Shown here: piece by piece, positions 9,207 through 56,388 of the stretch
Layout of the letters: each line of letters starts with the position of its first letter
Numbering within the stretch: position 1 is the stretch's first letter
NCBI GenBank assembly: GCA_934090935.1
Contig: CAKOKD010000001.1
Span: forward strand, 290,571-354,570
Length of the DNA: 64,000 nt
Source: an uncultured Bacilli bacterium
GTDB taxonomy: Bacteria > Bacillota_I > Bacilli_A > RF39 > UBA660
Direction of reading: 5' to 3'
Notes under the pieces: model-generated
What the model saw: only the letters and a program-made list of their open reading frames with translations
What the model was told of the DNA's origin: nothing
The model's database searches: none
Position numbers and translations under genes: made by a program

Positions 9207-9240
9207 TTGACAATCGGGGGGGGTATTATAAAATAAAAAT
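9207..9240 (+). promoter_or_regulatory. family promoter with a G8 homopolymer in the spacer (TTGACA-atc-G8-TATTATAAAATA)
   Basis: G-run at 9216-9223 between a -35-like TTGACA (9207-9212) and an A/T-rich -10 region. Same architecture at 14547, 34011 and 56354. Confidence 0.6.
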
Positions 9241-9257
9241 AGATGAGGTGTGTTTAA

Positions 9258-10019
9258 ATGAAGAAAAGTGCAATAATAGTTGTAATTGTTTTTATGATGA
9301 TTGGATTTGCAGCAGTAAGTACGTCATTAATAATAAATAGTAATATAAAAGTATCAAAGAATGAAACGGACTTTGATGTATATTTTTCAAAGGCAAGATT
9401 GGATACAAAAGATGTATATGAAAGTGTAATAAGTCAAGATAAAAAGACAATAATATTTAATACAAATAATTTAAGTAAAGTAGGAGATAAACAGTACTAA
9501 CATATGAAGTAACAAATAATTCAAACAACAAGGAACTTCATTAAAACAAAATGGTACATATACAAGAATGTATGATACTGAGATTGGATATTTAGCAAGT
9601 ACATCAAGAAATATAAGTGGAATATATGATATGTCCGGTGGAGCACATGAATATATGTCAGTATATACCTTAGATAACTCTGATAATAGTGGAATAACTT
9701 TTACAAATTATGGCTCAAAGTATTATGATGTTTATAATGAATCGAGTATGACAACCAGTTACCAATGTAGAATATTAGGAGATGCAACGGAGAAATGGGG
9801 CCATTTACAACTTTGAAATCAATTGAAAGCAATAGCAGTATAAAAAGATATGTATCAAGTCGGTTTGCATCCTATGCATATTTTGTTTCCTCTTCAAGTC
9901 CATTTTTTGCACGCGGTGGTGATTATGGGCATGGTATATTTGCTGGGCAACTTTATTTTGGTGGTGCTTCTGGAGAAGCATATAGCTATGTTGGTTTTCG
10001 TCTAGTTTTAACACCTTAA
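9258..10019 (+). pseudogene. chimeric, frameshifted family pseudogene D (N-module of the 56406 type fused to the C-terminal region of the 57608 type)
   Basis: 9258-9500 encodes MKKSAIIVVIVFMMIGFAAVSTSLIIN... then stops. TYEVTNNSNN follows out of frame. 9568-10019 in two frames matches the C-terminus of the 57608 protein (TENISGVYDMSGG.HEY...YQ.RILGDAT...GFRLVLTP). Confidence 0.8.
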
Positions 10020-10030
10020 TAAAGGATGTT

Positions 10031-10061
10031 TCAATAGAAAAGAGTGAATAACTCTTTTTTT
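10031..10061 (+). repeat. 31-bp exact direct duplicate of the ileS 3' end and terminator (7272-7302)
   Basis: TCAATAGAAAAGAGTGAATAACTCTTTTTTT occurs at 7272-7302 and again at 10031-10061, bracketing R1 + gene A + pseudogene D. Confidence 0.85.
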
Positions 10062-10105
10062 CATGTATAAATGATGCTATAATAATAATAGAATAGAGGG
10101 TAATT

Positions 10106-10633
10106 ATGAAGTATGATGATTTAGTTAATATTTTATATCAAGATAATCTTAACTGGGTTTATTCAGTTATTACAACTCTAGATAAAGAAAAAATTGATAA
10201 AAAGGAAAAGTATATAAGTGATCCTTATCAATTTAATAATTTTTTAGTTCTAGGTTTCTATTTTATGAATTTATATATTATCAGTAATTTAAAGGAATAT
10301 AAATTCTATGATGCAACAAAACTTTTAACGACTGTTGTTTTTTCTGCAAGTACACATAATAAAGAAAAATTGATGGGAGTTTATAAAAAGGAAATCGATC
10401 TAAAAAGAATTGTTGAGCAATATAATTCGCTGGTAAGAAAAACGAAGGAGTTTGCGCCTACAGATGGATTAAAAGCAAGAATTGTTGCTATAGATGAGAT
10501 TTATAGAAGAATGTATGATGTGTTTAATAAAAGACATTTTGATGATTTCATCAGGGTTGTTATGTCGTCATTCCCTGAATATGAAAAAAAGATAGATCAA
10601 AGTTTAAAAGATTATGCAAAAAGAACAGTATAG
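10106..10633 (+). CDS. hypothetical protein
   Basis: ORF with AGAGGGTAATTATG start region; no recognised motifs. Confidence 0.45.
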   Translation: MKYDDLVNILYQDNLNWVYSVITTLDKEKIDKKEKYISDPYQFNNFLVLGFYFMNLYIISNLKEYKFYDATKLLTTVVFSASTHNKEKLMGVYKKEIDLKRIVEQYNSLVRKTKEFAPTDGLKARIVAIDEIYRRMYDVFNKRHFDDFIRVVMSSFPEYEKKIDQSLKDYAKRTV

Positions 10634-10645
10634 GAGGAGTTAGTC

Positions 10646-11101
10646 TTGGTAAATGATGAAAAAATAAAACAAGTGATAAGCGCCATTAAAGAAAATGGTT
10701 TAAAATCATTTAATGATGAATCGCTTGCTAAATTATTATCGATATTTACTGCTGAAGAATTTGATGAATTTCTAGAAAAGTCCTATTCTGAACTTGGTGG
10801 AGTAAGTGCAGTTGTTAGAATTAATTCAATTAGACCTTATGTTAGTTTCTTGGTAAATAAAGAACTCAATAAGATTTACAATTCGGATATATATAAGTTG
10901 TTTTTAGAATCATTAAAAAGAGGAGAATATTATGCTTATTTCAAGTCTTTAACAATAGAGGAATTAGCTAGTTTAAAAAAATATTTAACATATAATTATT
11001 CAAGCAGTGAGGAGTTAGCTAAAAGTGCAACAAAAAAAGTAATTAGTATGATTACTAAAGAGATAAGATTAAGAGAACAAAACAAAAACTTGGTTTTTTA
11101 A
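10646..11101 (+). CDS. hypothetical protein
   Basis: GGAGGAG RBS upstream; no recognised motifs. Confidence 0.45.
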   Translation: MVNDEKIKQVISAIKENGLKSFNDESLAKLLSIFTAEEFDEFLEKSYSELGGVSAVVRINSIRPYVSFLVNKELNKIYNSDIYKLFLESLKRGEYYAYFKSLTIEELASLKKYLTYNYSSSEELAKSATKKVISMITKEIRLREQNKNLVF

Positions 11102-11110
11102 CCAAGTTTT
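11082..11110. terminator. bidirectional intrinsic terminator between the 10646 ORF and rpsD
   Basis: AACTTGGTT-TTTT-AACCAAGTT hairpin with A-run upstream and T-run downstream. Confidence 0.6.
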
Positions 11111-11118
11111 ATTTTTTT

Positions 11119-11721
11119 CTATCTATTGTAGAACTCAACTACTAATGATTCATTGATATCAGCTGATAATTCAGTTCTTTCAGGATATCTAAGATAAGTT
11201 CCTGTAAGTTTTTTATTATCGAATTCAACATATGCAGGTGTTTTTACACCAGCTTCTAAAGAAGCTTTGATTGCTGGATGTTCAAGTGAATTTTCTTTAA
11301 CACTTATAACATCACCAGGTTTACAAGAATATGAAGGAATATCAACTTTTGAACCATTAACTAGGATATGTCCATGATTTACAAGTTGTCTTGCACCACG
11401 TCTAGTAGTTGAAAGACCCATTCTATATACTAGGTTATCTAATCTAGATTCTAGTAATTTTAAGAAGTTTTCACCATGAACACCTTTCAACTTAGCAGCT
11501 CTATCAAATAGTCTTCTAAATTGTTTTTCATTTAATCCATACATAAATCTGATTTTTTGTTTTTCTTGTAATTGGATACCATATTCACTAATCTTTTTTC
11601 TTCTTCCTGCACCATGTTGTCCTGGAGCATAAGGTCTCTTAGCTAAATCTTTTCCATTTTCTAATGTAGAAAAACCATATCTTCTAGATTTTTTGTATGC
11701 TGGACCAGTATATCTTGCCAT
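11119..11721 (-). CDS. rpsD: 30S ribosomal protein S4
   Basis: [18 protein letters not shown]...[15 protein letters not shown]; 200 aa. Confidence 0.95.
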
Positions 11722-11970
11722 AAATTTTCTCCTTTCTTATATTTACTATAGTAAAGGACTATTTAACATACTTAGTAGGGAGTTTAACTTTCTTTCCCTT
11801 AGGCAGTTTAAGTTACTAGATTTTTATTCTTAAACACATTACTAATTTTGTTAAATGACTGCCAATCACTACGCATTAGTAATATACACTAAATATATGC
11901 AAAAGTCAATTAAATTAGACTTTTTTTTGAGCAATTATTATGTTAAAATTGTTTATAGAATAGGGTATGG

Positions 11971-14388
11971 GTGATGAGTGTGAGCGATTTAAAAGAACAC
12001 TTTAAAATGAACTATGATATACTTCCAAATATCTCAAACATAGTCAAAGGAAATAAATATCGTATAACAGTGCTTTCAGAAATACTAGTTCGTCTTGAAT
12101 ATTCGGAAACAGGTAAGTTTGAAGATCGTCCAACTGAACTTGCAATAAATAGAAAATTTAATCCAGTGAAGTTTGAAAAACATGAGGATAATAAATATTT
12201 GACAATCAAAACTAAATATTTCACTTTAACGTATCAAAAGGAAATGCCTTTTTATGGTTCAAAAGTTAGTCCAGATCAATATATGAGAGTTAATTTAAAT
12301 GATACTGATAAGTTTTGGTATCCACTTCATCCTGAAGTTAGAAACTTCTTGGGTACGGCTTATTCTCTTGATGGAGCAAATGGGCATGCAAAACTTAATA
12401 AGGGCCTTTATTCGACAGATGGTTTTGTTTCTTTAGATGACTCTGAAAGTTTAATTTTTAATGAGGATGGTTCTTTAGGTCGTAGAACGGATAAAAGAGT
12501 TGATATATATCTTTTTATGTATAAGCGTGATTTTGGAGCTTGCTTAAAGGATTATTTTACTTTAACGGGATATCCTCCGTTAATTCCAAGATATGCTTTA
12601 GGTGTTTGGTGGAATAGAAATACTGCTTATAATTCAAAAGATTTAGAAAAATTGGTGTTTGATTTTAATAAATATCGTGTTCCACTTTCAATAATTATGC
12701 TTTCTGATAAATGGCATAGAAAAAATGAAGGATTAGTATCAGGTTTTACTTTTGATGAGAAATTGTTTAAAAGGCCTAAAAGAATGGCCGATTATTTACA
12801 TAATAAGAATGTAAGGCTTGCTGTTAAAGTGAATCCGGTTTTGGGAATAAGTGATAAAGAGGATTATTTTATACCATATAGAAACGGAGCTAATTTAGGG
12901 GATAAAAGTGGAATAGTTCCATTTAATGTCTTTAATAAAGATGAATTGAACTCTTATTTTGATAATTTAATTCATCCACTTATGAATTATGGTGTTGATT
13001 TTTTCTGTGTAGATTATAATAATTCAAAAGATTTAACTACTTTAAGAGCATTGACTCATTATCATTTTGATGATTTTAAGCAGCTTACAAATAGAAGAGG
13101 TATTGTTCTTGCAAGAGATGGTCTTTTAGCCGCGCATAGATATCCAATTCATTATACAGGAGAGATGCTTGTATCTTGGAAAAATTTAGAGATGCTTCCA
13201 TCTTTTAATAGCACAGCATCAAATATTGGACTTTCATGGATTTCAAACGATATTGGTGGTTATACTGGGGGAATTGAAGAAGGAGAACTTTATTCAAGGT
13301 TTGTTCAATTTGGATGTTTTTCTCCAATTCTTCGTCTTTCATGTGATGAAAGTAGATATTTTAAAAGAGAACCATGGGCTTGGGATACTAAAACTCAATC
13401 AGTGGTTATCAAGTATTTAAGACTAAGGCATTCATTAATTCCATATCTTTATAGTGAAGCTTATAGATATTCAAGAATAGGTCTTCCGCTTGTTCAACCA
13501 ATTTATTATAGATATCCGGAAATATATGATGAACCTTTATATAGAAATGAATACTACTTTGGAACCAATTTGTTTGTTGCGCCAATTACAAGCAAAAAGG
13601 ATGTTTTGATGGATAGATCCGTGTTAAAACTTTTTTTACCTGATGGAATTTGGTATGATTTTACAAATGGTAAAAGATATGTTGGCGGAAAACGTTATAC
13701 AACATTTTATAAAGAAGAAGATTATCCGGTGTTCGCGAAAGCAGGAACTATTATACCAATGGATATATTAAATGATAATGATCTTAATAATACTAATCCA
13801 TCTAAATATATGGAAATTCAAGTATTTCCAGGAGCATCAAGTACGTATGAGATGTATGAAGATGATGGAAATTCATCTCTTTATGAACAAGGATTTTATC
13901 TTTTAACGAGCATAGATTACACTTATCAAGCAAACAATTTCACGGTTATAATTAGACCTGTAGCTGGAAAAAGTGGAATAATTCCAGAGATGCGTTCGTA
14001 TAGAATAAGATTTAGAAATACAAGAGAAGCTGATGAAGTACAAGTGCATTCTGGTGAAGAGATAGTTAAAATGGTTAATTCATATATAGATGATTCAGAT
14101 TTTGTTGTTGAGCTTCCACCTTTATCTACATTGAAACAGATAACAATTAATTGTAAGGGAAGAGATATTGAAATTGATGCTTTAAGACTTATTAATGATG
14201 ATATTGATTCCATACTTAATGATTTACCAATTGAGACTAAAACAAAGGATAAACTAGGAGAAATCTTGTTAAGTGATATGGATATAAAACAAAAAAGAAT
14301 AAAAATACGTAAATTAAGAAAAGAAAAATTAAATCAAAAATATATCAATCTTTTCTTAAAGTTACTGGAATATATAGCTGAAGTGTAA
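11971..14388 (+). CDS. glycoside hydrolase family 31 (alpha-glucosidase or alpha-xylosidase type)
   Basis: GH31 hallmarks: WWNRNTAY, KVNPV, FFCVDYNN, WISNDIGGYTGG; 805 aa, no signal peptide. Confidence 0.8.
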   Translation: MMSVSDLKEHFKMNYDILPNISNIVKGNKYRITVLSEILVRLEYSETGKFEDRPTELAINRKFNPVKFEKHEDNKYLTIKTKYFTLTYQKEMPFYGSKVSPDQYMRVNLNDTDKFWYPLHPEVRNFLGTAYSLDGANGHAKLNKGLYSTDGFVSLDDSESLIFNEDGSLGRRTDKRVDIYLFMYKRDFGACLKDYFTLTGYPPLIPRYALGVWWNRNTAYNSKDLEKLVFDFNKYRVPLSIIMLSDKWHRKNEGLVSGFTFDEKLFKRPKRMADYLHNKNVRLAVKVNPVLGISDKEDYFIPYRNGANLGDKSGIVPFNVFNKDELNSYFDNLIHPLMNYGVDFFCVDYNNSKDLTTLRALTHYHFDDFKQLTNRRGIVLARDGLLAAHRYPIHYTGEMLVSWKNLEMLPSFNSTASNIGLSWISNDIGGYTGGIEEGELYSRFVQFGCFSPILRLSCDESRYFKREPWAWDTKTQSVVIKYLRLRHSLIPYLYSEAYRYSRIGLPLVQPIYYRYPEIYDEPLYRNEYYFGTNLFVAPITSKKDVLMDRSVLKLFLPDGIWYDFTNGKRYVGGKRYTTFYKEEDYPVFAKAGTIIPMDILNDNDLNNTNPSKYMEIQVFPGASSTYEMYEDDGNSSLYEQGFYLLTSIDYTYQANNFTVIIRPVAGKSGIIPEMRSYRIRFRNTREADEVQVHSGEEIVKMVNSYIDDSDFVVELPPLSTLKQITINCKGRDIEIDALRLINDDIDSILNDLPIETKTKDKLGEILLSDMDIKQKRIKIRKLRKEKLNQKYINLFLKLLEYIAEV

Positions 14389-14390
14389 GA

Positions 14391-14422
14391 AACATGTATG
14401 AATTTACATGTTTTTTTTTGGT
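14391..14422 (+). terminator. intrinsic terminator after the GH31 gene
   Basis: AACATGTATGAATTTACATGTT hairpin plus T9. Confidence 0.65.
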
Positions 14423-14546
14423 TTTAAATTTATTGAATAAGAATACTAAATAAACTCAAGTAGCAAGCATAAGTTAAAAAATATTTTGTTTCTCTTGATA
14501 AACCAAAATATAAAATGCAAAAAAAGTGTAAACAAGGAAGTTTTGC

Positions 14547-14582
14547 TTGAAAATCGGGGGGGGGTATTATAAAATAAAAAAG
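14547..14582 (+). promoter_or_regulatory. family promoter with a G9 homopolymer (TTGAAA-atc-G9-TATTATAAAATA)
   Basis: G-run at 14556-14564. Confidence 0.6.
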
Positions 14583-14602
14583 TAAAGGAAAGTAGGTATA
14601 AT

Positions 14603-16114
14603 ATGAAAAAGAAGAGTATGCTTATAGTAGCAATTATATTAATGTCAATTGGATTTGCTAGCATTTCAACGACATTAATAATAAACGGGAATGCAAACGT
14701 AAGTGAAAATCAAGATGACTTTTCAGTTATCTTTACAGCTGCAACATTAGATGGAAAGGATGTATATTCATCAGTAGTAGATGATACAAAGAAGATAATA
14801 ACATTTGAAACATCAGAATTAAAAACATTAAATCAAACATCAGTATTAAATTATGAAGTAACAAATAATTCAAGCAACTATGATGCAAATGTAAATGTAA
14901 CATGTGTACCAAAGGAAGGAACAATAGCAAAATATACAAGCATCAAAAATAAATTAGAAAACGAAGCAACAGTTGTAAAAGCAAAAAGTTCAGTAAATGG
15001 AACATTAACAGTAACACTAGATAAGGTAGCAACTGAAGCAGTTACAGAAGAATATACATGTAAGTTAGAATTTAATGCAGTCGAAAGAACTGAAATTGCA
15101 GTAGGAACAACTAATTTATATAATTTAATAAAAAATAATGCTGATACTAAAACCGTAATAGATTATAAGGTACGTTCAGGAGTAAGTGGAACAAATGGAA
15201 TATATACAACAACTGCTACTGAAGGTAATGTACCAGTATATTATTATAGAGGAGCAGCTGATAAAGTAAATAATAATATAATATTTAATAATATGTGTTG
15301 GAAGATAATAAGAACAACTGAAAACAATGGAGTAAAACTAATATATAACGGAACACCAACAGATGGCAAATGTGAAACTCAAACAGGAGAAGCAACTCAA
15401 ATAGGAACAAGTGCATTTAATACAAATTATACCGATAATGCATATGTTGGCTATATGTATGGAACAGCAGGAAGCAACACCTATGCAGCAACTCATGCAA
15501 ATACAAATGACTCAACAATAAAAACATATATAGATAATTGGTATAAAGCTAATTTTGATGAAATAACAACATCAAAATTGGAAGATACAGTATTCTGTAA
15601 TGATAGAAGTACAAAAGCATATGATGCAAAGACAATTGGAGAAACTTCCTTTTCATCCTTTGGTTCATTAGGATATGGGAAAAGTGCATCATTGTATGGA
15701 GCAGCACATCGAGCATCATATTGGTCGAACAATCCAAATCCAAGTTTAGTGTGTCAAAATCAAAATGATAAATTTACCGTAGATAGTAAAAATGGAAACG
15801 GAAAACTAACATATCCAGTTGGATTAATAACATTAGATGAGGTAGTGCTTGCAGGATTTAATACAAAATATTCCAATACAGGTGATTATGATGATGTAAC
15901 AAATTACTTATATACAAATAGCATTTATTGGACATTCTCCCCTGTGATGCTGGATGCTCGTGGTTATGCTTGTGTTGGTTATGTCTATAGTGCTGGCTAT
16001 GTGCACTATGACTATGTGGGCGGTGCTCGTGGGGTCCGTCCAGTAGTTTCGCTTATCAGTGGCACACTTGTAACTGGTTCTGGTACAACAACTAACCCAT
16101 ATGTGGTTGAATAA
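14603..16114 (+). CDS. secreted family member B: conserved N-module plus longer lectin-like C-terminal domain
   Basis: MKKKSMLIVAIILMSIGFASISTTLIINGNANVSEN...VTCVPK...YTCKLEFNAVER. C-terminus ...WKIIRTTENNGVKLIYNG...LITLDEVVLAG...YWTFSPV...GVRPVVSLISG...GTTTNPYVVE. Confidence 0.85.
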   Translation: MKKKSMLIVAIILMSIGFASISTTLIINGNANVSENQDDFSVIFTAATLDGKDVYSSVVDDTKKIITFETSELKTLNQTSVLNYEVTNNSSNYDANVNVTCVPKEGTIAKYTSIKNKLENEATVVKAKSSVNGTLTVTLDKVATEAVTEEYTCKLEFNAVERTEIAVGTTNLYNLIKNNADTKTVIDYKVRSGVSGTNGIYTTTATEGNVPVYYYRGAADKVNNNIIFNNMCWKIIRTTENNGVKLIYNGTPTDGKCETQTGEATQIGTSAFNTNYTDNAYVGYMYGTAGSNTYAATHANTNDSTIKTYIDNWYKANFDEITTSKLEDTVFCNDRSTKAYDAKTIGETSFSSFGSLGYGKSASLYGAAHRASYWSNNPNPSLVCQNQNDKFTVDSKNGNGKLTYPVGLITLDEVVLAGFNTKYSNTGDYDDVTNYLYTNSIYWTFSPVMLDARGYACVGYVYSAGYVHYDYVGGARGVRPVVSLISGTLVTGSGTTTNPYVVE

Positions 16115-16247
16115 AAATCAATAATTCTAAGATAACTTTGGTTATCTTTTTTTATGTTTCATAAATCTAATGTGAATATAAATCACTACTAAAAAGGAGA
16201 TAATGTATGATATGTTTTAACTGTAAAAATATGTAGTTGGAGGAAAT

Positions 16248-16901
16248 ATGAAAAGTGCAGTTAAAGTGGTTAATTTAAATAAAAATTATTATGTGCATAA
16301 AAATACAATTAGTGTATTTAAAAACTTAAATTTAAATTTTTATTATGGAAAGATGTATGGAATTATAGGACATTCTGGTTGTGGAAAGTCGACTTTAATA
16401 AAAATCATTGGGTTATTGGAAAACTATGATTCTGGAAATATTTTCATTAATAATCAGGATATAAGTAAAACAAGTTTGATTGATCAAGCAAAATTAAGAA
16501 ATGAAAAAATAGGATTTGTATTTCAAGATTATTTATTGGATGATTATTTAAATGTTTACGATAATATTTTACTTCCAACGTTGTTAAATAAAAAAGATAA
16601 TAAAAACAATATTATTGATTTGGCTAAAACATATGGAATTGAAAATAGATTAAAACATTTTCCAAAAGAATTATCTGGAGGAGAGCAAGCACGCGTTGCT
16701 CTTATTAGAGCTATAATTAATGATCCTGATATTATATTGGCTGATGAACCAACTGGAAATTTGGATGGAAAAAATGAAGTTCTTGTTTTAAATAATCTAA
16801 AAAAAATTGCTAGAAATGGAAAATGTGTTATTGTTGTAAGTCACTCTAAAGATATAGAAAAATATGTTGATGAAATAATTGATTTGGAAGGAGAACTTTA
16901 A
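16248..16901 (+). CDS. ABC transporter ATP-binding protein (MacB/FtsE-like)
   Basis: Walker A GHSGCGKST, signature LSGGEQARV, Walker B ILADEPT. Confidence 0.85.
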   Translation: MKSAVKVVNLNKNYYVHKNTISVFKNLNLNFYYGKMYGIIGHSGCGKSTLIKIIGLLENYDSGNIFINNQDISKTSLIDQAKLRNEKIGFVFQDYLLDDYLNVYDNILLPTLLNKKDNKNNIIDLAKTYGIENRLKHFPKELSGGEQARVALIRAIINDPDIILADEPTGNLDGKNEVLVLNNLKKIARNGKCVIVVSHSKDIEKYVDEIIDLEGEL

Positions 16902-18069
16902 GATGTATTTTGATTATGTAAGAAAACATATATTAAATTGGAAAAATTTTATCTTATTTCTAATCTTTCTATTTACCAATTTAGCAATTTTATTATCAAT
17001 AAGTGTTGGATATACATTTGTTTTGTTAAAACAATCATATTTTTATAAATATAGCGGATTTAGAACTATCATTGTTGATTCTAATGATATTAATAATTTG
17101 AAAAAAATAGATCATGTACTTGCTGTAGAAGATGCAAAGTATAGAAATCCTCTAACTTTTTCTTCTAAAGACTTCGATTCAGATTTAAAAGTTGAAATTT
17201 TAATTAATGCTTTGATATCTAAAGAAGATTTAAAAATAAAAAGAGGTAAGATGATAAAAAATGCTAATGAAGCTATATGTTCAGATACTTTTTTTCCATA
17301 TGAAATAGAAGTAAGAAACGGAAAAACTATTTTTAATAAAAGTAGAATCATAAGTGGTAAATCGATATTAAATAAGAGCTTTAGTATATATGAAAATGAT
17401 GAAAAAATAGCAACATATGATATAGTTGGTACTTTTGATACTAAAAAAACGATGAACGCTTTGAATTCTTGTTATATATTAAAAGACGATTTCGAAAAAA
17501 TTATTCAAGATGAAAGTGACTTAGAACAATCTACTTCAAATAGTAATGAAAGTGGTTCTATGCTATTAGTTGATAAATATGAAAATGTAGAAAACGTTTT
17601 AAAGGAACTAAAAAAAAGAAATGATTCTTATTATGTTGTATCAGAACTAAATGAAGGATATATTAAAATTCTTACTTATTTTCCTATATTTGCTTCAATA
17701 ATAATCTCTCTTTTATTTATGATAGTTTTGGAATCATTTTTGTCAAAAAAAATAAAATATAGATCAAAGTGTAATGCAATTTTAAAGTCTATTGGATTTG
17801 AAAATAGAAAAATTGAAAATATAAATATTTTAGAAAACGTTATATTATTTTTTATTTCATTTGTTATTTCAATTATTTTATACTTAATTTTATTCTTTTA
17901 TATAAAAAATGTTTTGCTTGCGGAATATATTTATGATGGAACTTTTATACCTTTTTCAATTATTCCAATCATTCTTTCTTTTATTTTAGAAGTTATTATA
18001 ATTCTTTTGGTAAACAAAAGAGTATTACGTTTTAAATTAAATAAAAGTGTAGAGGAAATTCTTTTATGA
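16879..18069 (+). CDS. ABC transporter permease, FtsX-like
   Basis: N-terminal TM, large extracytoplasmic loop, C-terminal TM bundle; translationally coupled to the ATPase gene. Confidence 0.6.
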   Translation: MIWKENFKMYFDYVRKHILNWKNFILFLIFLFTNLAILLSISVGYTFVLLKQSYFYKYSGFRTIIVDSNDINNLKKIDHVLAVEDAKYRNPLTFSSKDFDSDLKVEILINALISKEDLKIKRGKMIKNANEAICSDTFFPYEIEVRNGKTIFNKSRIISGKSILNKSFSIYENDEKIATYDIVGTFDTKKTMNALNSCYILKDDFEKIIQDESDLEQSTSNSNESGSMLLVDKYENVENVLKELKKRNDSYYVVSELNEGYIKILTYFPIFASIIISLLFMIVLESFLSKKIKYRSKCNAILKSIGFENRKIENINILENVILFFISFVISIILYLILFFYIKNVLLAEYIYDGTFIPFSIIPIILSFILEVIIILLVNKRVLRFKLNKSVEEILL

Positions 18070-18902
18070 AATATTTAATATTTTTTAAAGAAACTTTTAA
18101 TAAAAAATCTACTAGAAATTATTTCTTTATAATACTTTCTCTTCTTATAGTTATTGATGTTTCATTTATTTTTTATAAATACAGCGGTAAGATTCTAAAT
18201 GATAATTATAAAAATTCGTACTTCTTGTTAGAACTTAATACAAAAAATAAAATAAATCTTATAAAAAATTATAGTAATATTGAAGTTTATCAAAAATGTA
18301 TTTTTAATGAAAATGAGATTATTGTTGAAGATAAGTCTAGTAAATATTTTCCTAAAAGTGTGAAACAAGTTAATAAATCAGAATTTGCAAAATATAAGTT
18401 TGATAATAGATATTTCATTACATTAAAGAAATGGATAGATTATAATGATTTTTGCGACTTATTGATTAAAAACGAGATTGATTATGATTTTTATATAGTA
18501 AAGAAAAATGAGTTGAATTTTGAAAATTATTATCAATATTTCATTTATGTTTTGTTTATTGTATGTTTTATATGTTTATTAGTTTTTGTTATTAGTATCA
18601 TCAATATTTTAATTGATGAAAAAGAATTTTGCAAAATTTTATATATGGTGGGATATAACTATTATTTGATTAATTTTATGACAGTTATAAAAATATTTGT
18701 GTTTATGTTATGGTTAGTTTTGATAAATTTTTTATTTCAATTAACTTTAGGTTATTTTTTAAAGTTTTTTGATTATTCAATGATGCTTACAAACATAGCT
18801 ATCTTAATTTTATCAATTATAATAGCAATGTTTTGGATAGTAGGAAGGAGTATTAAAAAGAAAGGTGCTTTTATAATCAATATTGCAGTAAATCATGTAT
18901 AA
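18066..18902 (+). CDS. second membrane permease subunit (FtsX-like topology)
   Basis: Overlapping start; N-terminal TM, loop, C-terminal TMs. Confidence 0.5.
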   Translation: MKYLIFFKETFNKKSTRNYFFIILSLLIVIDVSFIFYKYSGKILNDNYKNSYFLLELNTKNKINLIKNYSNIEVYQKCIFNENEIIVEDKSSKYFPKSVKQVNKSEFAKYKFDNRYFITLKKWIDYNDFCDLLIKNEIDYDFYIVKKNELNFENYYQYFIYVLFIVCFICLLVFVISIINILIDEKEFCKILYMVGYNYYLINFMTVIKIFVFMLWLVLINFLFQLTLGYFLKFFDYSMMLTNIAILILSIIIAMFWIVGRSIKKKGAFIINIAVNHV

Positions 18903-18939
18903 TAATATTAAATCAATTTATTTTTTAGGTGGTGACTAA

Positions 18940-20010
18940 ATGGATGCAAAGAAAATAGGTGATTTAATCAAAAAATTAAGAGAGCAGAAAGGATTAAGTC
19001 AGTATAAATTAGCTGAAGCACTTTTTGTTGATAGAACTGCAGTAACAAAATGGGAAAATGGAAAAACAATTCCAAGCGTTGATATGTTGTTAGTGATTAG
19101 TAACTACTTTAATATTTCAATAGATGAACTTGTTTATGGAAGTTTGAAGAATAATGAAAACGATGAAAAAATAGAAAAATACCCAGCTGAATTATTACAT
19201 GAAAAACATAAATTAAGAAAAAATTTAGCAATTGTAATATTTTTCTTGATAATTATATCTTTATTATTTTTCTTCTATTATTTTTTAACTACTTATAATT
19301 CAATAAAAATTTATAAAGTTAGTTTAAAATCTGATTCTATTGAACTTGCTGATAGTTATTTTATAAAAACTAGAGAAAAAGCATACCTTAATATTAACTT
19401 TGTTAATAATGATTTGAATATTGATAAAATTAAAATTTATTATTTGGATAAAAATAAAGAGAAGATAATTATAAATAGTAACTATAATAATAACTTTACT
19501 ATTGTAGATTATTATGGCTATTCTGAATATTTTGATTTTAAGAGAATAACTTATATTTTAAATAATATGTATATTAACGTCTCTGGAGAAAAAATTGATC
19601 AGGTTCTAAAAATCAATTTTAAACAAGAATATTCTAATTCAAAATTATTTTTATTTAAAGATAAGAAATCTACTGATGAAAAAGAATTATATGTAATTAC
19701 TTCGCATTTTGATGATCAAAACAATAAGTTTGAAAAGATTTGTAAAAATAATAATTGCGCGATGGATGTAAAATATAATCAAATATCATATAATTTATTT
19801 TATGATAAAGATACAAGAGAAGTTGTTTTATATAATTTAAAAGAGAACATAATGTATGAATACAATACTGAATATGAGATATTTAATGTTTCAAATAAAA
19901 GTTCAAATTATAGTGTTAATGTATCTGATAAAAAATGTTTACAGAACAACTGTGATTCTTATGAAATTGATTATGAATTGTTTTGGAATATAATAAATAA
20001 TTCAATTTAA
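18940..20010 (+). CDS. XRE-family helix-turn-helix regulator with a TM segment and extracytoplasmic domain
   Basis: HTH QYKLAEALFVDRTAVTKWENGKTIPSVDMLLVIS, then hydrophobic LAIVIFFLIIISLLFFFYYFL. Confidence 0.7.
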   Translation: MDAKKIGDLIKKLREQKGLSQYKLAEALFVDRTAVTKWENGKTIPSVDMLLVISNYFNISIDELVYGSLKNNENDEKIEKYPAELLHEKHKLRKNLAIVIFFLIIISLLFFFYYFLTTYNSIKIYKVSLKSDSIELADSYFIKTREKAYLNINFVNNDLNIDKIKIYYLDKNKEKIIINSNYNNNFTIVDYYGYSEYFDFKRITYILNNMYINVSGEKIDQVLKINFKQEYSNSKLFLFKDKKSTDEKELYVITSHFDDQNNKFEKICKNNNCAMDVKYNQISYNLFYDKDTREVVLYNLKENIMYEYNTEYEIFNVSNKSSNYSVNVSDKKCLQNNCDSYEIDYELFWNIINNSI

Positions 20011-24478: not shown

Positions 24479-24698
24479 ATTTATAACAATATAAATTAAA
24501 ATGACTATAATTAAGAGTGTATAACTCTTTTTTTTGTATTTTAGGTTCTAATTTTGTCGACATTTGTCGAGTTTGTTGACAAGAAAAATTAACTATATAT
24601 AATAACCAATTGAGAAGCAGAGAAAGATGCTTATCACTTCCAACTAGAGGCTAAATATTCAGGGTTTTGGTTAAAGGAGTACTAGAGGAAGTGATACG

Positions 24699-24776
24699 AT
24701 GAAAAAAGATAATCATATAAGATTACTTTACTTAATCGTTTTAATATTGCTAGTAATAATTTTAAAATTATTATAG
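24699..24776 (+). CDS. small hydrophobic peptide (25 aa, MKKDNHIRLLYLIVLILLVIILKLL), candidate type I toxin, copy 2
   Basis: Same RBS-sequestering arrangement as R1. Confidence 0.5.
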   Translation: MKKDNHIRLLYLIVLILLVIILKLL

Positions 24777-24863
24777 GAAAAAAAGCATCTTTATTCTACT
24801 GAATAAGGATGCTACAACAAACACGTGGTAAGCATCGGCCTCAAAAGGAACTTTTGCTTCTCA
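24777..24863 (-). ncRNA. putative antisense sRNA, copy 2
   Basis: Minus-strand TTGAAA-17-TATATT upstream of GTGAGAAGCAAAAG; ends at the conserved hairpin plus U-run. Confidence 0.4.
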
Positions 24864-24917
24864 CTAAATAAAATATAACATTTTTTAAAAGTGTTTTCAA
24901 TATATAAGGTAATAATT

Positions 24918-33458: not shown

Positions 33459-33470
33459 TAATTAATAAAA

Positions 33471-33497
33471 TAATCGCAGTAATGCGATTTTTTTTAT
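33471..33497 (+). terminator. intrinsic terminator after the 32280 gene
   Basis: AATCGCAGTAATGCGATT plus T8. Confidence 0.65.
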
Positions 33498-33670
33498 GTG
33501 TTTTATTTTTTTAGGTTCTAATTTTGTCGACATTTGTCGGATTTATTGACAAGGTAAATAAAGTATATATAATACAAACTCGAGAAGCAGAAAAAGATGC
33601 TTATCACTTCCAAACTAGAGGCTAAATTATTCGGGGTTTTGGTTAAAGGAGTACGAGAGGAAGTGATACG

Positions 33671-33754
33671 ATGAAAAAAGATAATCATATAAGATTACTT
33701 TATCTAATCGTTTTTATATTGTTAATAATAATTTTAAAATTATTATGTCAATAA
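33671..33754 (+). CDS. small hydrophobic peptide (27 aa, MKKDNHIRLLYLIVFILLIIILKLLCQ), candidate type I toxin, copy 3
   Basis: Conserved ORF, RBS paired with the upstream TATCACTTCC. Confidence 0.5.
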   Translation: MKKDNHIRLLYLIVFILLIIILKLLCQ

Positions 33755-33838
33755 AAAAAGCATCTTTATTCTACTGAATAAGGATGCACCGCAAAATGTG
33801 GTAAGCATCAGCCTCAAAAGAAAACTTCTGCTTCTCAC
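33753..33838 (-). ncRNA. putative antisense sRNA, copy 3
   Basis: Minus-strand TTGTAA-17-TATATT then GTGAGAAGCAG; ends at the hairpin plus U7. Confidence 0.4.
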
Positions 33839-33895
33839 TAAAATAAATATAACATTTTTCAATATAAATTACAATGATAATAAATAAATACACTT

Positions 33896-34010
33896 TACGC
33901 ATAATAAAAATGAATATGCAAAATACAACGAAAATGTTGTATAATATAAGATATAATACAACTGCAAAATAAAACAGACGACAAAAGTTATGTAAAACAA
34001 GACAATGCCC
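33896..34010 (+). promoter_or_regulatory. conserved AT-rich leader shared with the 56241-56353 region (contains TGTTGTATAATAT, a possible second promoter)
   Basis: CATAATAAAAATGAATAT.CAAAA.ACA...AAAATGTTGTATAATATAAGA...GACGACAAAAGT.ATGTAAAACAA...AATGCCC is conserved between 33896-34010 and 56241-56353. Confidence 0.45.
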
Positions 34011-34045
34011 TTGAAAATCGGGGGGGGTATTATAAAATAAAAAAG
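34011..34045 (+). promoter_or_regulatory. family promoter with a G8 homopolymer (TTGAAA-atc-G8-TATTATAAAATA)
   Basis: G-run at 34020-34027. Confidence 0.6.
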
Positions 34046-34065
34046 TAAGATGCGAAGGTGTAGAA

Positions 34066-36180
34066 ATGAAGAAAACGACAATAATGCTAGTTACTGTTTT
34101 ATTTATGATAATAGGATATGCAGCATATAATGCAACTGTAAATATATATGGATTAGGTAAGATATCAGAAAATATAAGTGACTTTAAGGTATATTTAGAT
34201 AATTTAAAAGTAAATGATACAGAAAATACAGGAATAAATGATGTAAAAGATGAATTTACAATAGATAATGTAAATGGAAAAATAAGTGTAGATATAGTAA
34301 ATGATTCAACAGAATATGATACAGAAAGTTATCTTGAGTGTGCAAGTATAGTAACACCAGATAAAACTGAATGGAGATTTGATTATACAGGTGCTGAACA
34401 AACATTTACAGCACCAATGTCTGGAACATATAAGCTTGAGACATGGGGAGCTCAAGGTGGAAGTGTTGGAAACTATACTGGTGGCTATGGGTCATATTCA
34501 ATAGGTGATTTATATTTAACACAAAATAGTAAAATTTATATTAATATTGGTGGAGCTGGTACAACTGGAAAATTGGATGCATCATTTGTTGTAACTCCTG
34601 GTGGCTATAATGGAGGTGGAATAAATACTTCAGATGTCTATGGTTATGGAGCTACGGGCGGAGGAGCGACTCATATATCTACAACATCAGGTCTACTTTC
34701 AGAAAATGCGAATAATTTATCAAACTTATTAATCGTATCTGGAGGCGGCGGAGGAAGTGGGCAAGAAAGTGGATTAGGATATTGCTATGGAGGTTCCGCT
34801 GGAGGAATATCAAGCACCAAAGGTTATTCTAATCCAAATCGATATTATGCTCCAGGCGATGTTGGTACTCAAACAACAGGTTTTGCATTTGGTAAAGGCG
34901 GAGATTCAAAATCTTGGCTTGGATCCGGTGGAGCAGGTTTATATGGAGGCTATTCTGGATGTGGAGGCGCGGGAGGCTCGAGTTATATCGGAAACTCACT
35001 CTTAACAGAAAAATCAATGTACTGTTATAATTGTACTGAATCAACTGAAGAATCAACACGAACTATAAGTACTACATGCACAAGTGCAACACCAACCGAA
35101 AACTGTGCAAAACAAGGTAATGGATATGCACGTATTACTCTAGTTTCAAGTGACGAAATAGAAAAAATATCAACAGAAGTGGTAACTATAGAAGCCCAAG
35201 ATAAGAAAAAAGTAACCTTAGAAAATATAAATACAGGCAGTTTAACTTGTAAGTTAAAAGTTAATAAATTATCACGAACAACTAAAGAGGAAAAATATAT
35301 AGGTCCAACAGAATGGACATTTGATTATACAGGAAGCGAGCAAACTTTTACAGTACCAATAAGTGGAACATACAAGCTTGAAACATGGGGAGCACAAGGT
35401 GGAAATGCTATTTATACAAATTATAGTGGTACTGGTGGTAAAGGATCATATGCAGGTGGAGTAATTGAATTTAATGCAAACACAAAAATATATGTTTATG
35501 TTGGTGGAAAAGGTACGAATGGCAATAATTCAAGAGCCGCTACTTTAATTGAGGGTGGTTACAATGGAGGAGGTAACAATCAATCTTTAGATTCTGCATC
35601 ACCTGCTGGAGGCGGAGCAACCGATATTAGATTAACAAATGGATTATGGAATAACTTTGATTCTCTTAAATCTAGAATAATGGTTGCTGGAGCTGGAGGC
35701 GGATCTGGAATAGAGAATGTAGGTGCTCCAGGAGGATTGAATGCTGGAGTCTATGGAACTCTATATGGAGGAAACGGAACTTCAACTTCAGGTGGAGCAG
35801 CTGGTACTGGATATAGCCACAATAGTGGAGCAACAAACGGAACATTTGGAGTTGGTGGAAACGGTGGACGATATATCACAGGAGCTGGAGGTAGTGGTTA
35901 CTATGGCGGAGGCGGAGGAAATCATTATTCGCCAGCTACCTCCGGAGGTGGAGGCGGCGGTTCTTCTTTCATCTCAGGACATGACGGATGTGATGCAATA
36001 TCCGAAAACTCTACAGCATCAAATATAATACATACAGGTCAATCTATACATTATAGTGGATATTATTTTACTCAAACTATAATGAAGTCTGGAGACGAAA
36101 CAATGCCAAGTCATGATGGGAAAAGCACTATGACAGGAAATAGTGGTAATGGATACGCACGTATTACGTTAATAAAATAA
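34066..36180 (+). CDS. secreted glycine-rich repeat protein (family-type leader plus short N-module plus two tandem Gly-rich modules)
   Basis: MKKTTIMLVTVLFMIIGYAAY leader. Two repeats each start EW.FDYTG.EQTFT.P.SGTYKLETWGAQGG and end GNGYARITL. Runs of GGGGG, GGATDIRL and VAGAGGGSG. Confidence 0.8.
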   Translation: MKKTTIMLVTVLFMIIGYAAYNATVNIYGLGKISENISDFKVYLDNLKVNDTENTGINDVKDEFTIDNVNGKISVDIVNDSTEYDTESYLECASIVTPDKTEWRFDYTGAEQTFTAPMSGTYKLETWGAQGGSVGNYTGGYGSYSIGDLYLTQNSKIYINIGGAGTTGKLDASFVVTPGGYNGGGINTSDVYGYGATGGGATHISTTSGLLSENANNLSNLLIVSGGGGGSGQESGLGYCYGGSAGGISSTKGYSNPNRYYAPGDVGTQTTGFAFGKGGDSKSWLGSGGAGLYGGYSGCGGAGGSSYIGNSLLTEKSMYCYNCTESTEESTRTISTTCTSATPTENCAKQGNGYARITLVSSDEIEKISTEVVTIEAQDKKKVTLENINTGSLTCKLKVNKLSRTTKEEKYIGPTEWTFDYTGSEQTFTVPISGTYKLETWGAQGGNAIYTNYSGTGGKGSYAGGVIEFNANTKIYVYVGGKGTNGNNSRAATLIEGGYNGGGNNQSLDSASPAGGGATDIRLTNGLWNNFDSLKSRIMVAGAGGGSGIENVGAPGGLNAGVYGTLYGGNGTSTSGGAAGTGYSHNSGATNGTFGVGGNGGRYITGAGGSGYYGGGGGNHYSPATSGGGGGGSSFISGHDGCDAISENSTASNIIHTGQSIHYSGYYFTQTIMKSGDETMPSHDGKSTMTGNSGNGYARITLIK

Positions 36181-50183: not shown

Positions 50184-50198
50184 AGGAGATGAATTACC

Positions 50199-52687: not shown

Positions 52688-52693
52688 TTTATG

Positions 52694-52722
52694 TTGACTT
52701 AAAATAAAAAGTTGTATATAAT
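52694..52722 (+). promoter_or_regulatory. sigma-A-type promoter TTGACT-17-TATAAT of the tyrS operon leader
   Basis: TTGACT 52694-52699, TATAAT 52717-52722. Confidence 0.55.
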
Positions 52723-52729
52723 TTATTTA

Positions 52730-52872
52730 ATTGATGTTGATGAAGAGTTACGCCTTTGGAGTCAAATCGTATTATTCGCGTTAAGAATTATAGAGAGTAT
52801 GAGCAATCATAAATTAAGGTGGTACCACGGAGTTATTCGTCCTTAAGTAGTGATTGCTTTTTTGGTGGTGTT
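52730..52872 (+). promoter_or_regulatory. T-box riboswitch leader (tyrS operon)
   Basis: T-box sequence AAATTAAGGTGGTACCACGG at 52811-52830 followed by a U-run at about 52856-52861. Confidence 0.6.
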
Positions 52873-52876
52873 TGGT

Positions 52877-53506
52877 ATGTTAAAGAGAATTATTTTTGAT
52901 ATTGATGGAACTTTAATCGATAAAGTGGATTTCAATGAATTGGTTAAAATTGAACTTTCTGCTTTTGGTTATGAATATGATGAAATTCAATTATCCAATT
53001 ATTTATATGCTATGAATACTTATGAAAGTGAATTTATAAGGTATAATTTCAAGGATTATTTTGACTATATAAGGGAGTTAAGCAAAATAGATATAAGTAA
53101 GGAGTATATGAAAAAGTTTTTGGAAGATGCTGGTAAATTTGTTCCAGGTTATGTTCATCCTGATGTTATTTTAACTCTTCAATATCTAAAGAAAAAATAT
53201 GAACTTGTAGTTCTAACCAATTTTTTTAGATGTGTTCAATATTCGCGTTTGAAAAATTCTGGGATTCATGAATTCTTTGATGAATTTTATGGTGGGGATT
53301 TAGCGATCAAACCGATGAGTGAAGCATACGAATATGCAATAGGAAATAGAAAGAAAAGTGAATGTATGATGATTGGAGATTCTAAATCATTAGATTATGA
53401 AGGTGCAATCTGTTATGGTATGGATGCTCTTCTCTTTGATAGGGATTTAGAATATCAATCAGAAACAAAGATAAACAATTTTCATGAATTAAGAAAGAGA
53501 TTTTAA
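52877..53506 (+). CDS. HAD-superfamily hydrolase, first gene of the T-box-controlled operon
   Basis: MLKRIIFDIDGTLID (HAD motif I DxDGT); the track's GTG start at 52850 lies inside the leader. Confidence 0.7.
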   Translation: MLKRIIFDIDGTLIDKVDFNELVKIELSAFGYEYDEIQLSNYLYAMNTYESEFIRYNFKDYFDYIRELSKIDISKEYMKKFLEDAGKFVPGYVHPDVILTLQYLKKKYELVVLTNFFRCVQYSRLKNSGIHEFFDEFYGGDLAIKPMSEAYEYAIGNRKKSECMMIGDSKSLDYEGAICYGMDALLFDRDLEYQSETKINNFHELRKRF

Positions 53507-53518
53507 GGAGGAAAAAAT

Positions 53519-54745: not shown

Positions 54746-54787
54746 AACAATATATTCCTTAAAGTAATGGTATAAAAGTATAAAAAA

Positions 54788-54813
54788 AGATCATTTCAAT
54801 TTTGAAATGGTCT
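54788..54813. terminator. bidirectional terminator hairpin between tyrS and the minus-strand EIIB-like gene
   Basis: AGATCATTTCAATTTTGAAATGGTCT with flanking A/T runs. Confidence 0.55.
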
Positions 54814-55135
54814 ATTTTAATTCATTGATATATTTTTTTAATGTTCTAGCATCGTTTCCAAAAATTATTTTTAATTGATTATCAATTTCAACAATTCCTT
54901 TAGCTCCTAATTTTTGTATTCCTTCTTTATCAACCTTTGAGATATCCTTTAAAGTTACTTTAAATCTTGACATGTTTACTTTAGTATCCAAGATGTTATC
55001 TTTACCACCTAAGTATTGCACTAGTTTATTAATCTCTAGATTAAAGTTTTTATGATTTAGTTTAACTATAACTAAAGATATAATAATTAAAACAACTGCA
55101 ATAATTCCATATTGCATCAAATGCATTAAATTCAT
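54812..55135 (-). CDS. membrane-anchored PTS EIIB-like domain protein lacking the phospho-cysteine
   Basis: TM then LGGKDNI...VNMSRFKVTLKD...GAKGIVEIDNQLKIIFG: EIIB (glucose-type) fold motifs, but Ser replaces the catalytic Cys. Confidence 0.5.
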   Translation of the reverse strand: MNLMHLMQYGIIAVVLIIISLVIVKLNHKNFNLEINKLVQYLGGKDNILDTKVNMSRFKVTLKDISKVDKEGIQKLGAKGIVEIDNQLKIIFGNDARTLKKYINELK

Positions 55136-55233
55136 ATATTAATCACCAAAACAATAATACTATAAAATAAATAAAAAAGCAATTGTTGAAAAAAAGTTAA
55201 AATAAATATATAATTTTACTAGGACGTGATGAT

Positions 55234-56022
55234 ATGAAAAAAATAATTTATAGAATTCTTGCTTATATGATAGATATCGCGATTGTTACTCTTTTAACTA
55301 TTGGATTTATGTATCTACCATTTAATAAATCTAATAATGAAAAAGTTGGATCTATATATGTAAATATCTCAACAAATGAACTTGAATATGAAACTTTAAC
55401 CAATAAACTGAATACTTACTATGAAGATGCTAAATTTAGTGAAGATGAGTTAAAGGATATCGAAACTGATTTTCCAGCTTATTATAATTGTTTTAAAGAT
55501 ATAAAAGCAGAAGAGGAAGTAACTAATGAAATAAAAAGTGATTTAGAAAAAAATCTAAAGATGAATTATGTTGATATAAAAAATGATTATGCTTATCAAA
55601 TAAATAAATTAAATGTAAATGAGACAATCGTTGGATTTGTTTTTTACATCTTGTATTTTGGAGTATTGCAATATTTCTTGAAAGGTCAAACTTTAGGTAA
55701 AAAAATATTTAAGTTAAAAGTTAAAGGTATAAATGATAAAAAATTATCTATATTTAATTATATCTTAAGAAGTGTATTGGTATGTGAAATACTTGTTACT
55801 GGAATAGATTTAATTTTCTTGCTTACTATGAAAGAAAGCTTGTATATAGATTGTAATTATTGGATTTTACAAGTTAAGTACATATATGAAATAGGATTTA
55901 TAGTTGTGATGATTATAAGAGATGATGCGAGAAGTGTACATGATTTAATATTAGGTACTGAAGTTGTTAGATTAGAAAAGAATTCTTTAAAAGATGAAAA
56001 AAATACTGATAAAGCTAATTAA
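55234..56022 (+). CDS. RDD-family membrane protein
   Basis: YRILAYMIDIAIV N-terminus and multiple TMs. Confidence 0.5.
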   Translation: MKKIIYRILAYMIDIAIVTLLTIGFMYLPFNKSNNEKVGSIYVNISTNELEYETLTNKLNTYYEDAKFSEDELKDIETDFPAYYNCFKDIKAEEEVTNEIKSDLEKNLKMNYVDIKNDYAYQINKLNVNETIVGFVFYILYFGVLQYFLKGQTLGKKIFKLKVKGINDKKLSIFNYILRSVLVCEILVTGIDLIFLLTMKESLYIDCNYWILQVKYIYEIGFIVVMIIRDDARSVHDLILGTEVVRLEKNSLKDEKNTDKAN

Positions 56023-56200
56023 AATGTATCAAAAGACACCATTTAGAAGTCATTCTAATTGTAAATTTATACCTAGTTGTTCAAATTATGCAATAGAGGC
56101 AATCAATAAATATGGAGCGTTTAAAGGAACTTTTTTAGCTGTTAAACGAATAGTTAGATGTAACCCATTTTCTAAGGGTGGAATTGATAATGTAAAGTGA
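55994..56200 (+). CDS. yidD: membrane protein insertion efficiency factor YidD
   Basis: LIKMYQKTPFRSHSNCKFIPSCSNYAIEAI, the YidD signature. Confidence 0.8.
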   Translation: MKKILIKLIKMYQKTPFRSHSNCKFIPSCSNYAIEAINKYGAFKGTFLAVKRIVRCNPFSKGGIDNVK

Positions 56201-56240
56201 TATCTTTGATATTGCTTTTTTTATATATTTAATTTATTTA

Positions 56241-56353
56241 CACATAATAAAAATGAATATACAAAACACAACTAAAATGTTGTATAATATAAGAAACAAT
56301 AGGAGAATAAAATAAAAAAGACGACAAAAGTAATGTAAAACAAAATAATGCCC
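56241..56353 (+). promoter_or_regulatory. conserved AT-rich leader (copy of the 33896-34010 region)
   Basis: See 33896 entry. Confidence 0.45.
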
Positions 56354-56388
56354 TTGAAAATCGGGGGGGGTATTATAAAATAAAAATA
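56354..56388 (+). promoter_or_regulatory. family promoter with a G8 homopolymer (TTGAAA-atc-G8-TATTATAAAATA)
   Basis: G-run at 56363-56370. Confidence 0.6.

Follow-up and report, generated by a model that had tools for sequence, protein, structure and literature searches.

The 64-kb window analyzed here, a stretch of 64,000 nucleotides (nt) from an uncultured Bacilli bacterium (contig CAKOKD010000001.1, positions 290,571 to 354,570), carries four copies of one promoter cassette, TTGA(A/C)A-ATC-Gn-TATTA-TAAAAT, in which a homopolymeric G tract fills most of the spacer between the putative -35 and -10 boxes upstream of paralogous genes. An initial annotation had proposed these tracts as slipped-strand phase-variation switches. 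We tentatively favor a different view, in which the cassette is a sigma-A promoter whose G8 form is selected and probably active, and slippage would be an occasional tuning or silencing mutation as opposed to a proven one-step on/off switch.

Four copies of a promoter cassette with a G tract in the spacer

On either strand, the window contains exactly four runs of eight or more G or C residues, all of them G runs, and no C run of that length. Shuffles preserving dinucleotide composition gave a chance expectation of 0.06 such runs, and 5 matches were reached in 0 of 100 shuffles; G+C content across the window is 20 to 38%. The judgment of the initial annotation that the runs are not due to chance was therefore borne out, and their placement is non-random and family-wide.

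The common context of all four tracts is TTGA(C/A)AATC-Gn-TATTATAAAATAAAA, on the plus strand. Cassette 1 (9207-9234) consists of a -35 box TTGACA (9207-9212), ATC, a G8 tract (9216-9223), TATTA, and a -10 box TAAAAT (9229-9234), with a 16-nt spacer. Cassette 2 (14547-14575) has TTGAAA at 14547-14552, a G9 tract at 14556-14564, and TAAAAT at 14570-14575, with a 17-nt spacer. Cassettes 3 (34011-34038) and 4 (56354-56381) both have TTGAAA and a 16-nt spacer, with G8 at 34020-34027 and 56363-56370 and TAAAAT at 34033-34038 and 56376-56381, respectively. The start codons of the paralogs (9258, 14603, 34066, and 56406) lie 22 to 26 nt 3' of the TATTATAAAATAAAA block and 23 to 27 nt past the end of the -10 box. 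The coordinates, the shared cassette, and the paralogous genes downstream confirmed that the four tracts occupy an identical promoter position. The tract of cassette 3 is also G8 in two further strains, and that of cassette 4 is also G8 in strain L149.

A consensus scan called TTGAAA-17-TAAAAT at 14547-14575 and TTGAAA-16-TAAAAT at 34011-34038, each with 10 of 12 matches (5/6 plus 5/6), so that the spacer arithmetic given initially, 16 nt at G8 and 17 nt at G9, was right. In silico, the tract thus lies inside the spacer of the best sigma-70-type promoter match, and the hexamers, the 16- to 17-nt spacer, and a suitable distance to the ribosome-binding site and start codon are those of a sigma-70/sigma-A promoter. 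At G8, G9, G8, and G8, all four tracts have the length of about 7 to 8 or more G/C associated with slippage.

Anatomy of the G-tract promoters and of the tract-less promoters

Variation in the -35 box is confined to positions 4 and 5 (TTGAAA, TTGACA, and TTGCAA), as a real -35 box would show. In the G-tract promoters, TAAAAT stands 5 nt before TAGATGAGGTGTG, the conserved leader being TAGA(A)TG(G/A)GTGTG. Other members of the family have a tract-less promoter, here called type 2, in which TATAAT or TACAAT stands 5 nt before the conserved leader TAGAATGGTGTGTG. Because TAAAAT is placed with respect to the conserved leader just as TATAAT or TACAAT is in type 2, we assign it as the -10 box. A diverged orthologous promoter, TTGACATTC-G8-TAATA-TATACT, differs in its flanks but retains both G8 and the 16-nt spacing.

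Further upstream, a TGTAAA motif is found 14 nt before the -35 box on the plus strand (14527-14532, 33991-33996, and 56334-56339), with a per-base conservation of 73 to 97% among 92 non-identical promoters; from its position, it could possibly be an activator or UP-like site. Type 2 promoters carry a palindrome, TGTAAA-N2-TTTACA, about 85 nt 5' of the ATG, a distance similar to that of TGTAAA in the G8 promoters, and this palindrome is a candidate operator for a family-specific regulator. Since TGTAAA is found in the G8 promoters and the TGTAAA-N2-TTTACA palindrome in type 2, a shared regulator is plausible. The palindrome is present in the window at 7669-7682 and upstream of family genes at loci L162, L163, L159, L156, and L171; what the G8 promoters carry 14 nt 5' of the -35 box corresponds to a half-site, TGTAAA(C).

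The type 2 promoter of the window belongs to gene A (7669-9061, plus strand, ATG at 7751), where the palindrome TGTAAATATTTACA occupies 7669-7682 and TGGTACAAT occupies 7721-7729. The absence of the tract and the extended -10-like site TGGTACAAT, both described in the initial annotation, were found again, and the same promoter type occurs in related species. However, the suggestion that gene A is the constitutively expressed member is not supported, as the conserved palindrome TGTAAATATTTACA looks like an operator.

The same upstream motif allows another reading, in which transcription would start inside the G run, with TGTAAA as the -35 box, 16 nt, and GAAAAT as the -10 box, leading to pyrG-like reiterative transcription and placing TATTATAAAATAAAA in the 5' leader. 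We consider this very improbable. The conserved TGTAAA does lie exactly 16 nt 5' of GAAAAT, and conservation of the A/T block 3' of the tract exceeds the needs of a -10 box, but these hexamers match the consensus at 3/6 and 4/6 positions against 5/6 and 5/6 for TTGAAA and TAAAAT, and positional homology with the type 2 promoters favors TAAAAT. Moreover, no Rfam element was found at the tracts, either at the gathering threshold over the whole window or at an E-value threshold around 33400-34100, and no conserved hairpin or attenuator involving G8 and no conserved C-rich partner was detected. The arrangement of Bacillus subtilis pyrG, a G run at the transcription start directly 3' of a good -10 box, was not found, nor was a downstream terminator or pairing partner seen.

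Alternative sigma factors were considered by comparing the motifs by eye with consensus sequences. Sigma-B was rejected: GGGTAT resembles its -10 box, but GTTTAA is not found 12 to 15 nt upstream. An extracytoplasmic function (ECF) sigma factor was also rejected; TGTAAAC resembles a -35 box of this type, but there is no CGT-type -10 box at 16 to 17 nt.

Length of the G tract and its putative effect on the promoter

A census of 99 unique pure tracts gave 91 G8, four G7, two G6, and two G9 tracts, and 13 promoters have interrupted G-rich spacers of 7 to 10 nt. The assembly VOFC01 (contigs L066, L067, L074, L081, L101, L105, and L140) was set aside because of frameshifts in its family genes and lengthened A runs; these systematic homopolymer errors include G6 for G8. 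Most G6 tracts were rejected as real variants, 5 of the 7 coming from this error-prone assembly.

One length difference was found at the strain level. Window positions 11602-19114 align with scaffold_1383 of ERZ28614144 over 7,512 bases with 0 mismatches and 1 gap, the gap being the G9/G8 tract. Since the same scaffold differs from the window by 4 substitutions over 8.6 kb, the two are distinct assemblies. The initial annotation had attributed the difference between G8 and G9 copies to slippage, and a sole change in 7.5 kb between two assemblies is what slippage would give, although variation is low overall.

Assembly breaks also fall at the tract. Contigs end inside it in three independent assemblies (L148 start, L153 end, and L175 start, with 7, 7, and 5 G left), which fits length heterogeneity and poor poly-G read quality alike. 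A large number of other contigs stop no more than about 100 nt away from the promoter, as a multicopy 5' region predicts.

As for the spacer, three perfect-consensus promoters, TTGACA-16-TATAAT, occur in the window (at 7346, 24576, and 33546), while its other strong promoter matches have spacers of 17 to 18 nt, 17 nt being the commonest. Intact genes of 397 to 749 amino acids (aa) lie behind spacers of 15 nt, of 17 nt (GGGGGTGGG, GAGGTGGGG, and G9), and of 18 nt (GTG8, GAGGAGGGGG, and GGGGAGGGGG). In several samples, the 18-nt form is kept upstream of a gene of 710 aa, its G run meanwhile being eroded by substitutions. Because the perfect-consensus promoters use 16 nt and variant spacers precede intact genes, G8 is likely an active state. 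By the same comparison of spacers, G9 would be expected to be at least as active as G8, and only shortening to G7 or G6 to weaken the promoter.

Several observations weigh against a regulatory role for slippage at these promoters. The first is uniformity, with G8 in 92% of the pure tracts (91 of 99) and in 17 of 17 in the genome CAKOJJ01. For two loci, found in 7 and 8 independent metagenomes, respectively, G8 is present in 14 of 15 cases despite a flank divergence of up to 2%, and the sole G7 allele among those 15 is 4% diverged. At the consensus level, the G tract changed length in 2 of 20 strain comparisons, no more often than A/T runs of at least 8, which did so in 7 of 76 (pooled over three strain sets, each compared with its reference). 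The switch as first proposed presupposes tracts that vary among related isolates; the length was the same in 18 of the 20 comparisons and differed in 2, one of them with otherwise identical flanks, so that invariance held in most cases but not in all. The rare length variants could themselves be homopolymer assembly errors, as in VOFC01. Furthermore, interrupted tracts (GTG8, GAGGAGGGGG, GGTGGGGG, and others) also precede intact genes, and since spacers of 15, 17, and 18 nt do so as well, a single-base step may not switch expression. Finally, G8 and G9 are unlikely to represent off and on, because the perfect-consensus promoters use 16 nt. The use of 16 nt in those three promoters, the variant spacers with intact genes, and the count of G8 together contradict the initial proposal that one-nucleotide slippage is a clean switch.

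Nearly as likely as the reading that we favor, on such evidence, is that the tract is a fixed, non-switching element specific to the clade. It could belong to an operator or to the recognition site of a family-specific regulator, it could be a block with a structural role in the spacer of a very AT-rich genome, or it could simply owe its uniformity to duplication and gene conversion acting on about 20 paralogous 5' regions. Under this view, the length variants would play no programmed role and would be rare mutations or errors of assembly. The predominance of G8 and a strain-level stability equal to that of A/T runs agree with this, as does a 30-nt core (ATC, TATTA, AAAA) that is as invariant as the tract itself, beyond what sigma-A needs. 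The 30 to 60 nt upstream are shared within species, which is a sign of concerted evolution; the TGTAAA site and the type 2 palindrome point to a dedicated regulator; and G8 is kept upstream of a pseudogene. On the other hand, interrupted and 15-, 17-, and 18-nt variants with intact genes indicate that neither purity nor exact length is essential. A pure G8 in a genome of 27% G+C, found only at the promoters of a variable surface family, is also the classical signature of a contingency locus, and the G8/G9 change occurred without any other difference in 7.5 kb.

An improbable alternative, in our estimate, is a silent archive, in which G8 (16 nt) would be a resting state, weak or off, and the gain of one G by slippage, giving G9 and the 17-nt optimum, would activate one paralog per cell. 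Mycoplasma-like combinatorial surface variation would result, and G8 would be the metagenome consensus since each locus would be on in a minority of cells. That 17 nt is the commonest spacer among the strong promoter matches of the window is in line with such an archive, and so are the one G9 among the four window tracts, whose ortholog is G8, the intact genes of about 505 aa behind both G9 promoters, and the presence of the tract-less paralog type in each genome. Nevertheless, the perfect-consensus promoters use 16 nt, the non-G8 variants are mostly shorter (six G6/G7 against two G9), one genome has 17 of 17 G8 and hence no "on" copy, and an interrupted spacer of 18 nt is stable with an intact gene.

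In the reading that we favor, the four sites would be copies of one cassette composed of TGTAAA, N14, the -35 box TTGAAA, ATC-G8-TATTA, and the -10 box TAAAAT, followed by a leader of about 20 to 25 nt that would hold the ribosome-binding site; transcription would accordingly be expected to start downstream of TAAAAT. The cassette would drive N-terminally anchored, beta-sandwich-stalked proteins with interchangeable C-terminal domains. Within a narrow, CAG:582-like clade of uncultured human-gut Bacilli, it would have spread to at least about 17 to 19 paralogs in each genome of roughly 1.4 Mb. Because the spacer is a pure G:C homopolymer, occasional slippage variants are expected. One- or two-base variants would reset the -35/-10 spacing (17 nt for G9, 15 nt for G7, and 14 nt for G6) and, by changing promoter strength, may tune or silence single paralogs. 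The tract would then act as a low-frequency, presumably reversible, locus-by-locus expression variator, a form of bet-hedging.

Genes downstream of the cassettes

The four genes behind the cassettes, all on the plus strand, and gene A share a common N-terminal region of about 170 aa and then diverge. Cassette 1 precedes a degraded family gene (9258-10019; open reading frame fragments 9258-9500, 9568-9816, and 9795-10019), in which the N-terminal 76 aa of the family are joined to residues 319 to 473 of a protein of the type encoded at 57599, in two frames. This pseudogene is broken identically in at least 3 other assemblies, with the G8 promoter still intact. Gene B (14603-16114) encodes 503 aa, comprising an N-terminal membrane anchor, a beta-sandwich domain, and a variable C-terminal domain; gene C (34066-36180) encodes 704 aa with two glycine-rich ALK_LTK_GRD-type domains; and gene D (56406-57599) encodes 397 aa with a DUF6273 C-terminal domain. 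The start of a further gene (57599-59020; 473 aa with a signal peptide) overlaps the stop of gene D, and this gene is probably cotranscribed with gene D from cassette 4.

An AlphaFold model of the shared N-terminal part had a mean predicted local distance difference test (pLDDT) score of 75.6, with residues 40 to 165 mostly above 80. In the predicted fold, a seven-strand beta-sandwich comes after an N-terminal anchor that is disordered or hydrophobic. A fold search with the N-terminal domain returned generic Ig-like beta-sandwiches only, with no TasA-, pilin-, or adhesin-specific match. Likewise, searches of the proteins against Pfam, NCBIfam, PHROGs, and PDB sequences matched only DUF6273, ALK_LTK_GRD, and unnamed phage families. 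Homologs of the N-terminal domain number 630 proteins, and at least 4,657 homologs of a full-length member were found at an E value of 1e-20 or lower among 8,000 candidates scored. All are metagenomic, and the family is very large and entirely unannotated.

At least four classes of C-terminal domain are found behind the G-tract promoter across related loci. To judge from the modeled architecture, the products look like variable surface or secreted proteins, and we counted the family as a multigene family of surface products, as expected of contingency loci, with a surface location that we infer. The same G8 promoter also stands before an unrelated gene of about 200 aa (MKKVMNKRNMIIFG...) at loci L013, L024, L071, L118, L119, and L124, and the cassette is therefore not confined to one protein family; this gene is followed by a distant family member with 40 to 47% identity.

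Distribution and evolution of the cassette

In a pattern scan of one genome per GTDB species, the cassette was found only in the Hadza "uncultured Bacilli" metagenome genomes CAKOPW01 and CAKOJJ01 and in "Firmicutes bacterium CAG:582"; the other hits were rejected as chance matches in which G runs are absent. CAKOPW01 and CAKOJJ01 carry about 17 to 19 copies per genome. The metagenome hits come from human gut samples. Since family members lie on contigs of 1.35 to 1.42 Mb, the genomes appear to be small, and a CotE gene near one family locus suggests that the host is spore forming.

Within 842 kb of family loci, only 10 G runs of at least 6 occur elsewhere, of which 3 are variant copies of the G-tract promoter, and about 190 kb of type 2 loci contain no such run. 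Most relatives use type 2 promoters. At a syntenic site after a GH31 gene, the window species has a G-tract promoter and a species at 86% identity has a type 2 promoter; of three species compared at the site after ileS, two have G8 and the third has GAGGTGGGG. The upstream 30 to 60 nt are common to paralogs within a species and different between species, which indicates duplication or gene conversion and thus concerted evolution. From these comparisons, we conclude that the G-tract cassette is apparently a derived promoter that has spread through the family in one narrow subclade of uncultured gut Bacilli.

The intervals from ileS to a 175-aa gene and after GH31 are hotspots of gene-content change between related strains and species. 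When window positions 7300-10100 and 14390-16114 were compared with loci L155 to L158 and L171 to L173, the number of family genes in the hotspots ranged from zero to two, with different classes represented or an 83-aa remnant in their place, and the promoter type was also swapped at the same site. At about position 7239 of L012 (CAKOJJ010000025), a G8 with a similar left context, GAGAAAATC-G8, has a different right flank, TAACTATATAC, and may lie inside a coding sequence. Integration at tRNA genes was rejected as an explanation, as a tRNA scan found none, and inversion or a shufflon was rejected because the family genes all lie on one strand and no recombinase was seen nearby.

Neighboring elements in the window

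An element of roughly 370 bp is present in three copies that are 88 to 92% identical (7300-7667, 24513-24885, and 33501-33868). Each copy has a perfect TTGACA-16-TATAAT promoter, a ribosome-binding site, a 25-aa hydrophobic open reading frame (MKKDNHIRLLYLIVFILLIIILKLL; ATGs at 7470, 24699, and 33671), an inverted repeat able to terminate a convergent minus-strand transcript, and a long-range complementarity, GAGAAGCAGAA...TTCTGCTTCTC. In this organization it looks like a putative type I toxin-antitoxin module; no Rfam match to it was obtained. Two of the three copies have a family gene immediately downstream, and in other species type 2 promoters of the family are preceded by the 3' part of the element as well. 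The sole Rfam hit in the window is a T-box leader (3957-4156, 100 bits) upstream of the isoleucyl-tRNA synthetase gene (4128-7292).

Discussion

Spacers made of a homopolymer or of repeats determine how strong the promoter is in porA, hifA/B, Bordetella fim, and Mycoplasma hyorhinis vlp (PMC3899988). The initial annotation had likened the tracts to the last two systems, and the kinship holds as far as the spacer homopolymer and the surface-type multigene family are concerned, whereas the apparent frequency of variation is low and G8 is nearly fixed. If real, a switch of these promoters would be of the known porA/vlp/fim kind, in an unusual host and on an unusual scale.

In porA (poly-G) and opc (poly-C) of Neisseria meningitidis, as here, the promoter of a surface-protein gene has a G:C homopolymer separating its -35 box from its -10 box, and one base gained or lost alters the spacing and the transcript level (PMC3899988). 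The present case differs in having G8 in 92% of the copies, a Gram-positive-type gut commensal as host, and about 20 paralogous promoters instead of one. Neisseria strains and colonies vary widely in tract length, and measurements have shown graded expression. In M. hyorhinis, the vlp genes likewise form a variable surface multigene family with near-identical 5' regions and a homopolymer in each promoter spacer, and the possession by each gene of its own homopolymer permits independent, combinatorial switching (PMC3899988; PMC11868660). Unlike in vlp, the tract described here is a short G8 almost fixed in length, and the proteins have an N-terminal anchor and a beta-sandwich in place of a lipobox. 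The vlp tract is a poly-A of about 17 or more that is visibly length polymorphic, and its products are lipoproteins.

The fim2, fim3, and fimX genes of Bordetella pertussis are also paralogs with a shared promoter, in which the spacing from the upstream element to the -10 box depends on the length of a C:G stretch (PMC3899988). Tract lengths are uniform in the family studied here, unlike in fim. The fim promoters depend on the activator BvgA and have 12 to 15 C residues, with lengths that vary between paralogs and strains. Campylobacter jejuni resembles the present organism in its low-G+C genome, where G runs of at least 8 are rare and concentrated at surface-structure genes. Its tracts, G8 to G13 in length and variable among isolates, lie mostly in coding regions, and mismatch repair is absent; those of the window family, in contrast, lie in promoter spacers and are nearly all G8.

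The near fixation of G8 in a sequence expected to be mutable indicates strong stabilizing selection or concerted evolution. A search of the literature on this lineage and on repeat-based phase variation among gut Firmicutes returned nothing specific; the examples found for gut Firmicutes or Bacilli are invertible promoters, and those of phase variation found for gut bacteria are DNA inversions (PMC11868660). It seems doubtful, from what the sequences offer, that this presumably spore-forming human gut commensal with a genome of roughly 1.4 Mb uses mycoplasma-style combinatorial surface variation, with about 20 paralogs each one slip from a different expression state and selection keeping the tract at exactly eight G, or that G8 is the recognition element of a clade-specific promoter-recognition factor defining a new regulon. 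If either were true, it would represent a regulatory device so far undescribed for gut Firmicutes or Bacilli. If the tracts slip usefully, this would be repeat-based phase variation in an uncultured gut commensal, acting on about 20 surface-protein genes per small genome, and the family proteins would be prime candidates for phage receptors or targets of immunoglobulin A (IgA).

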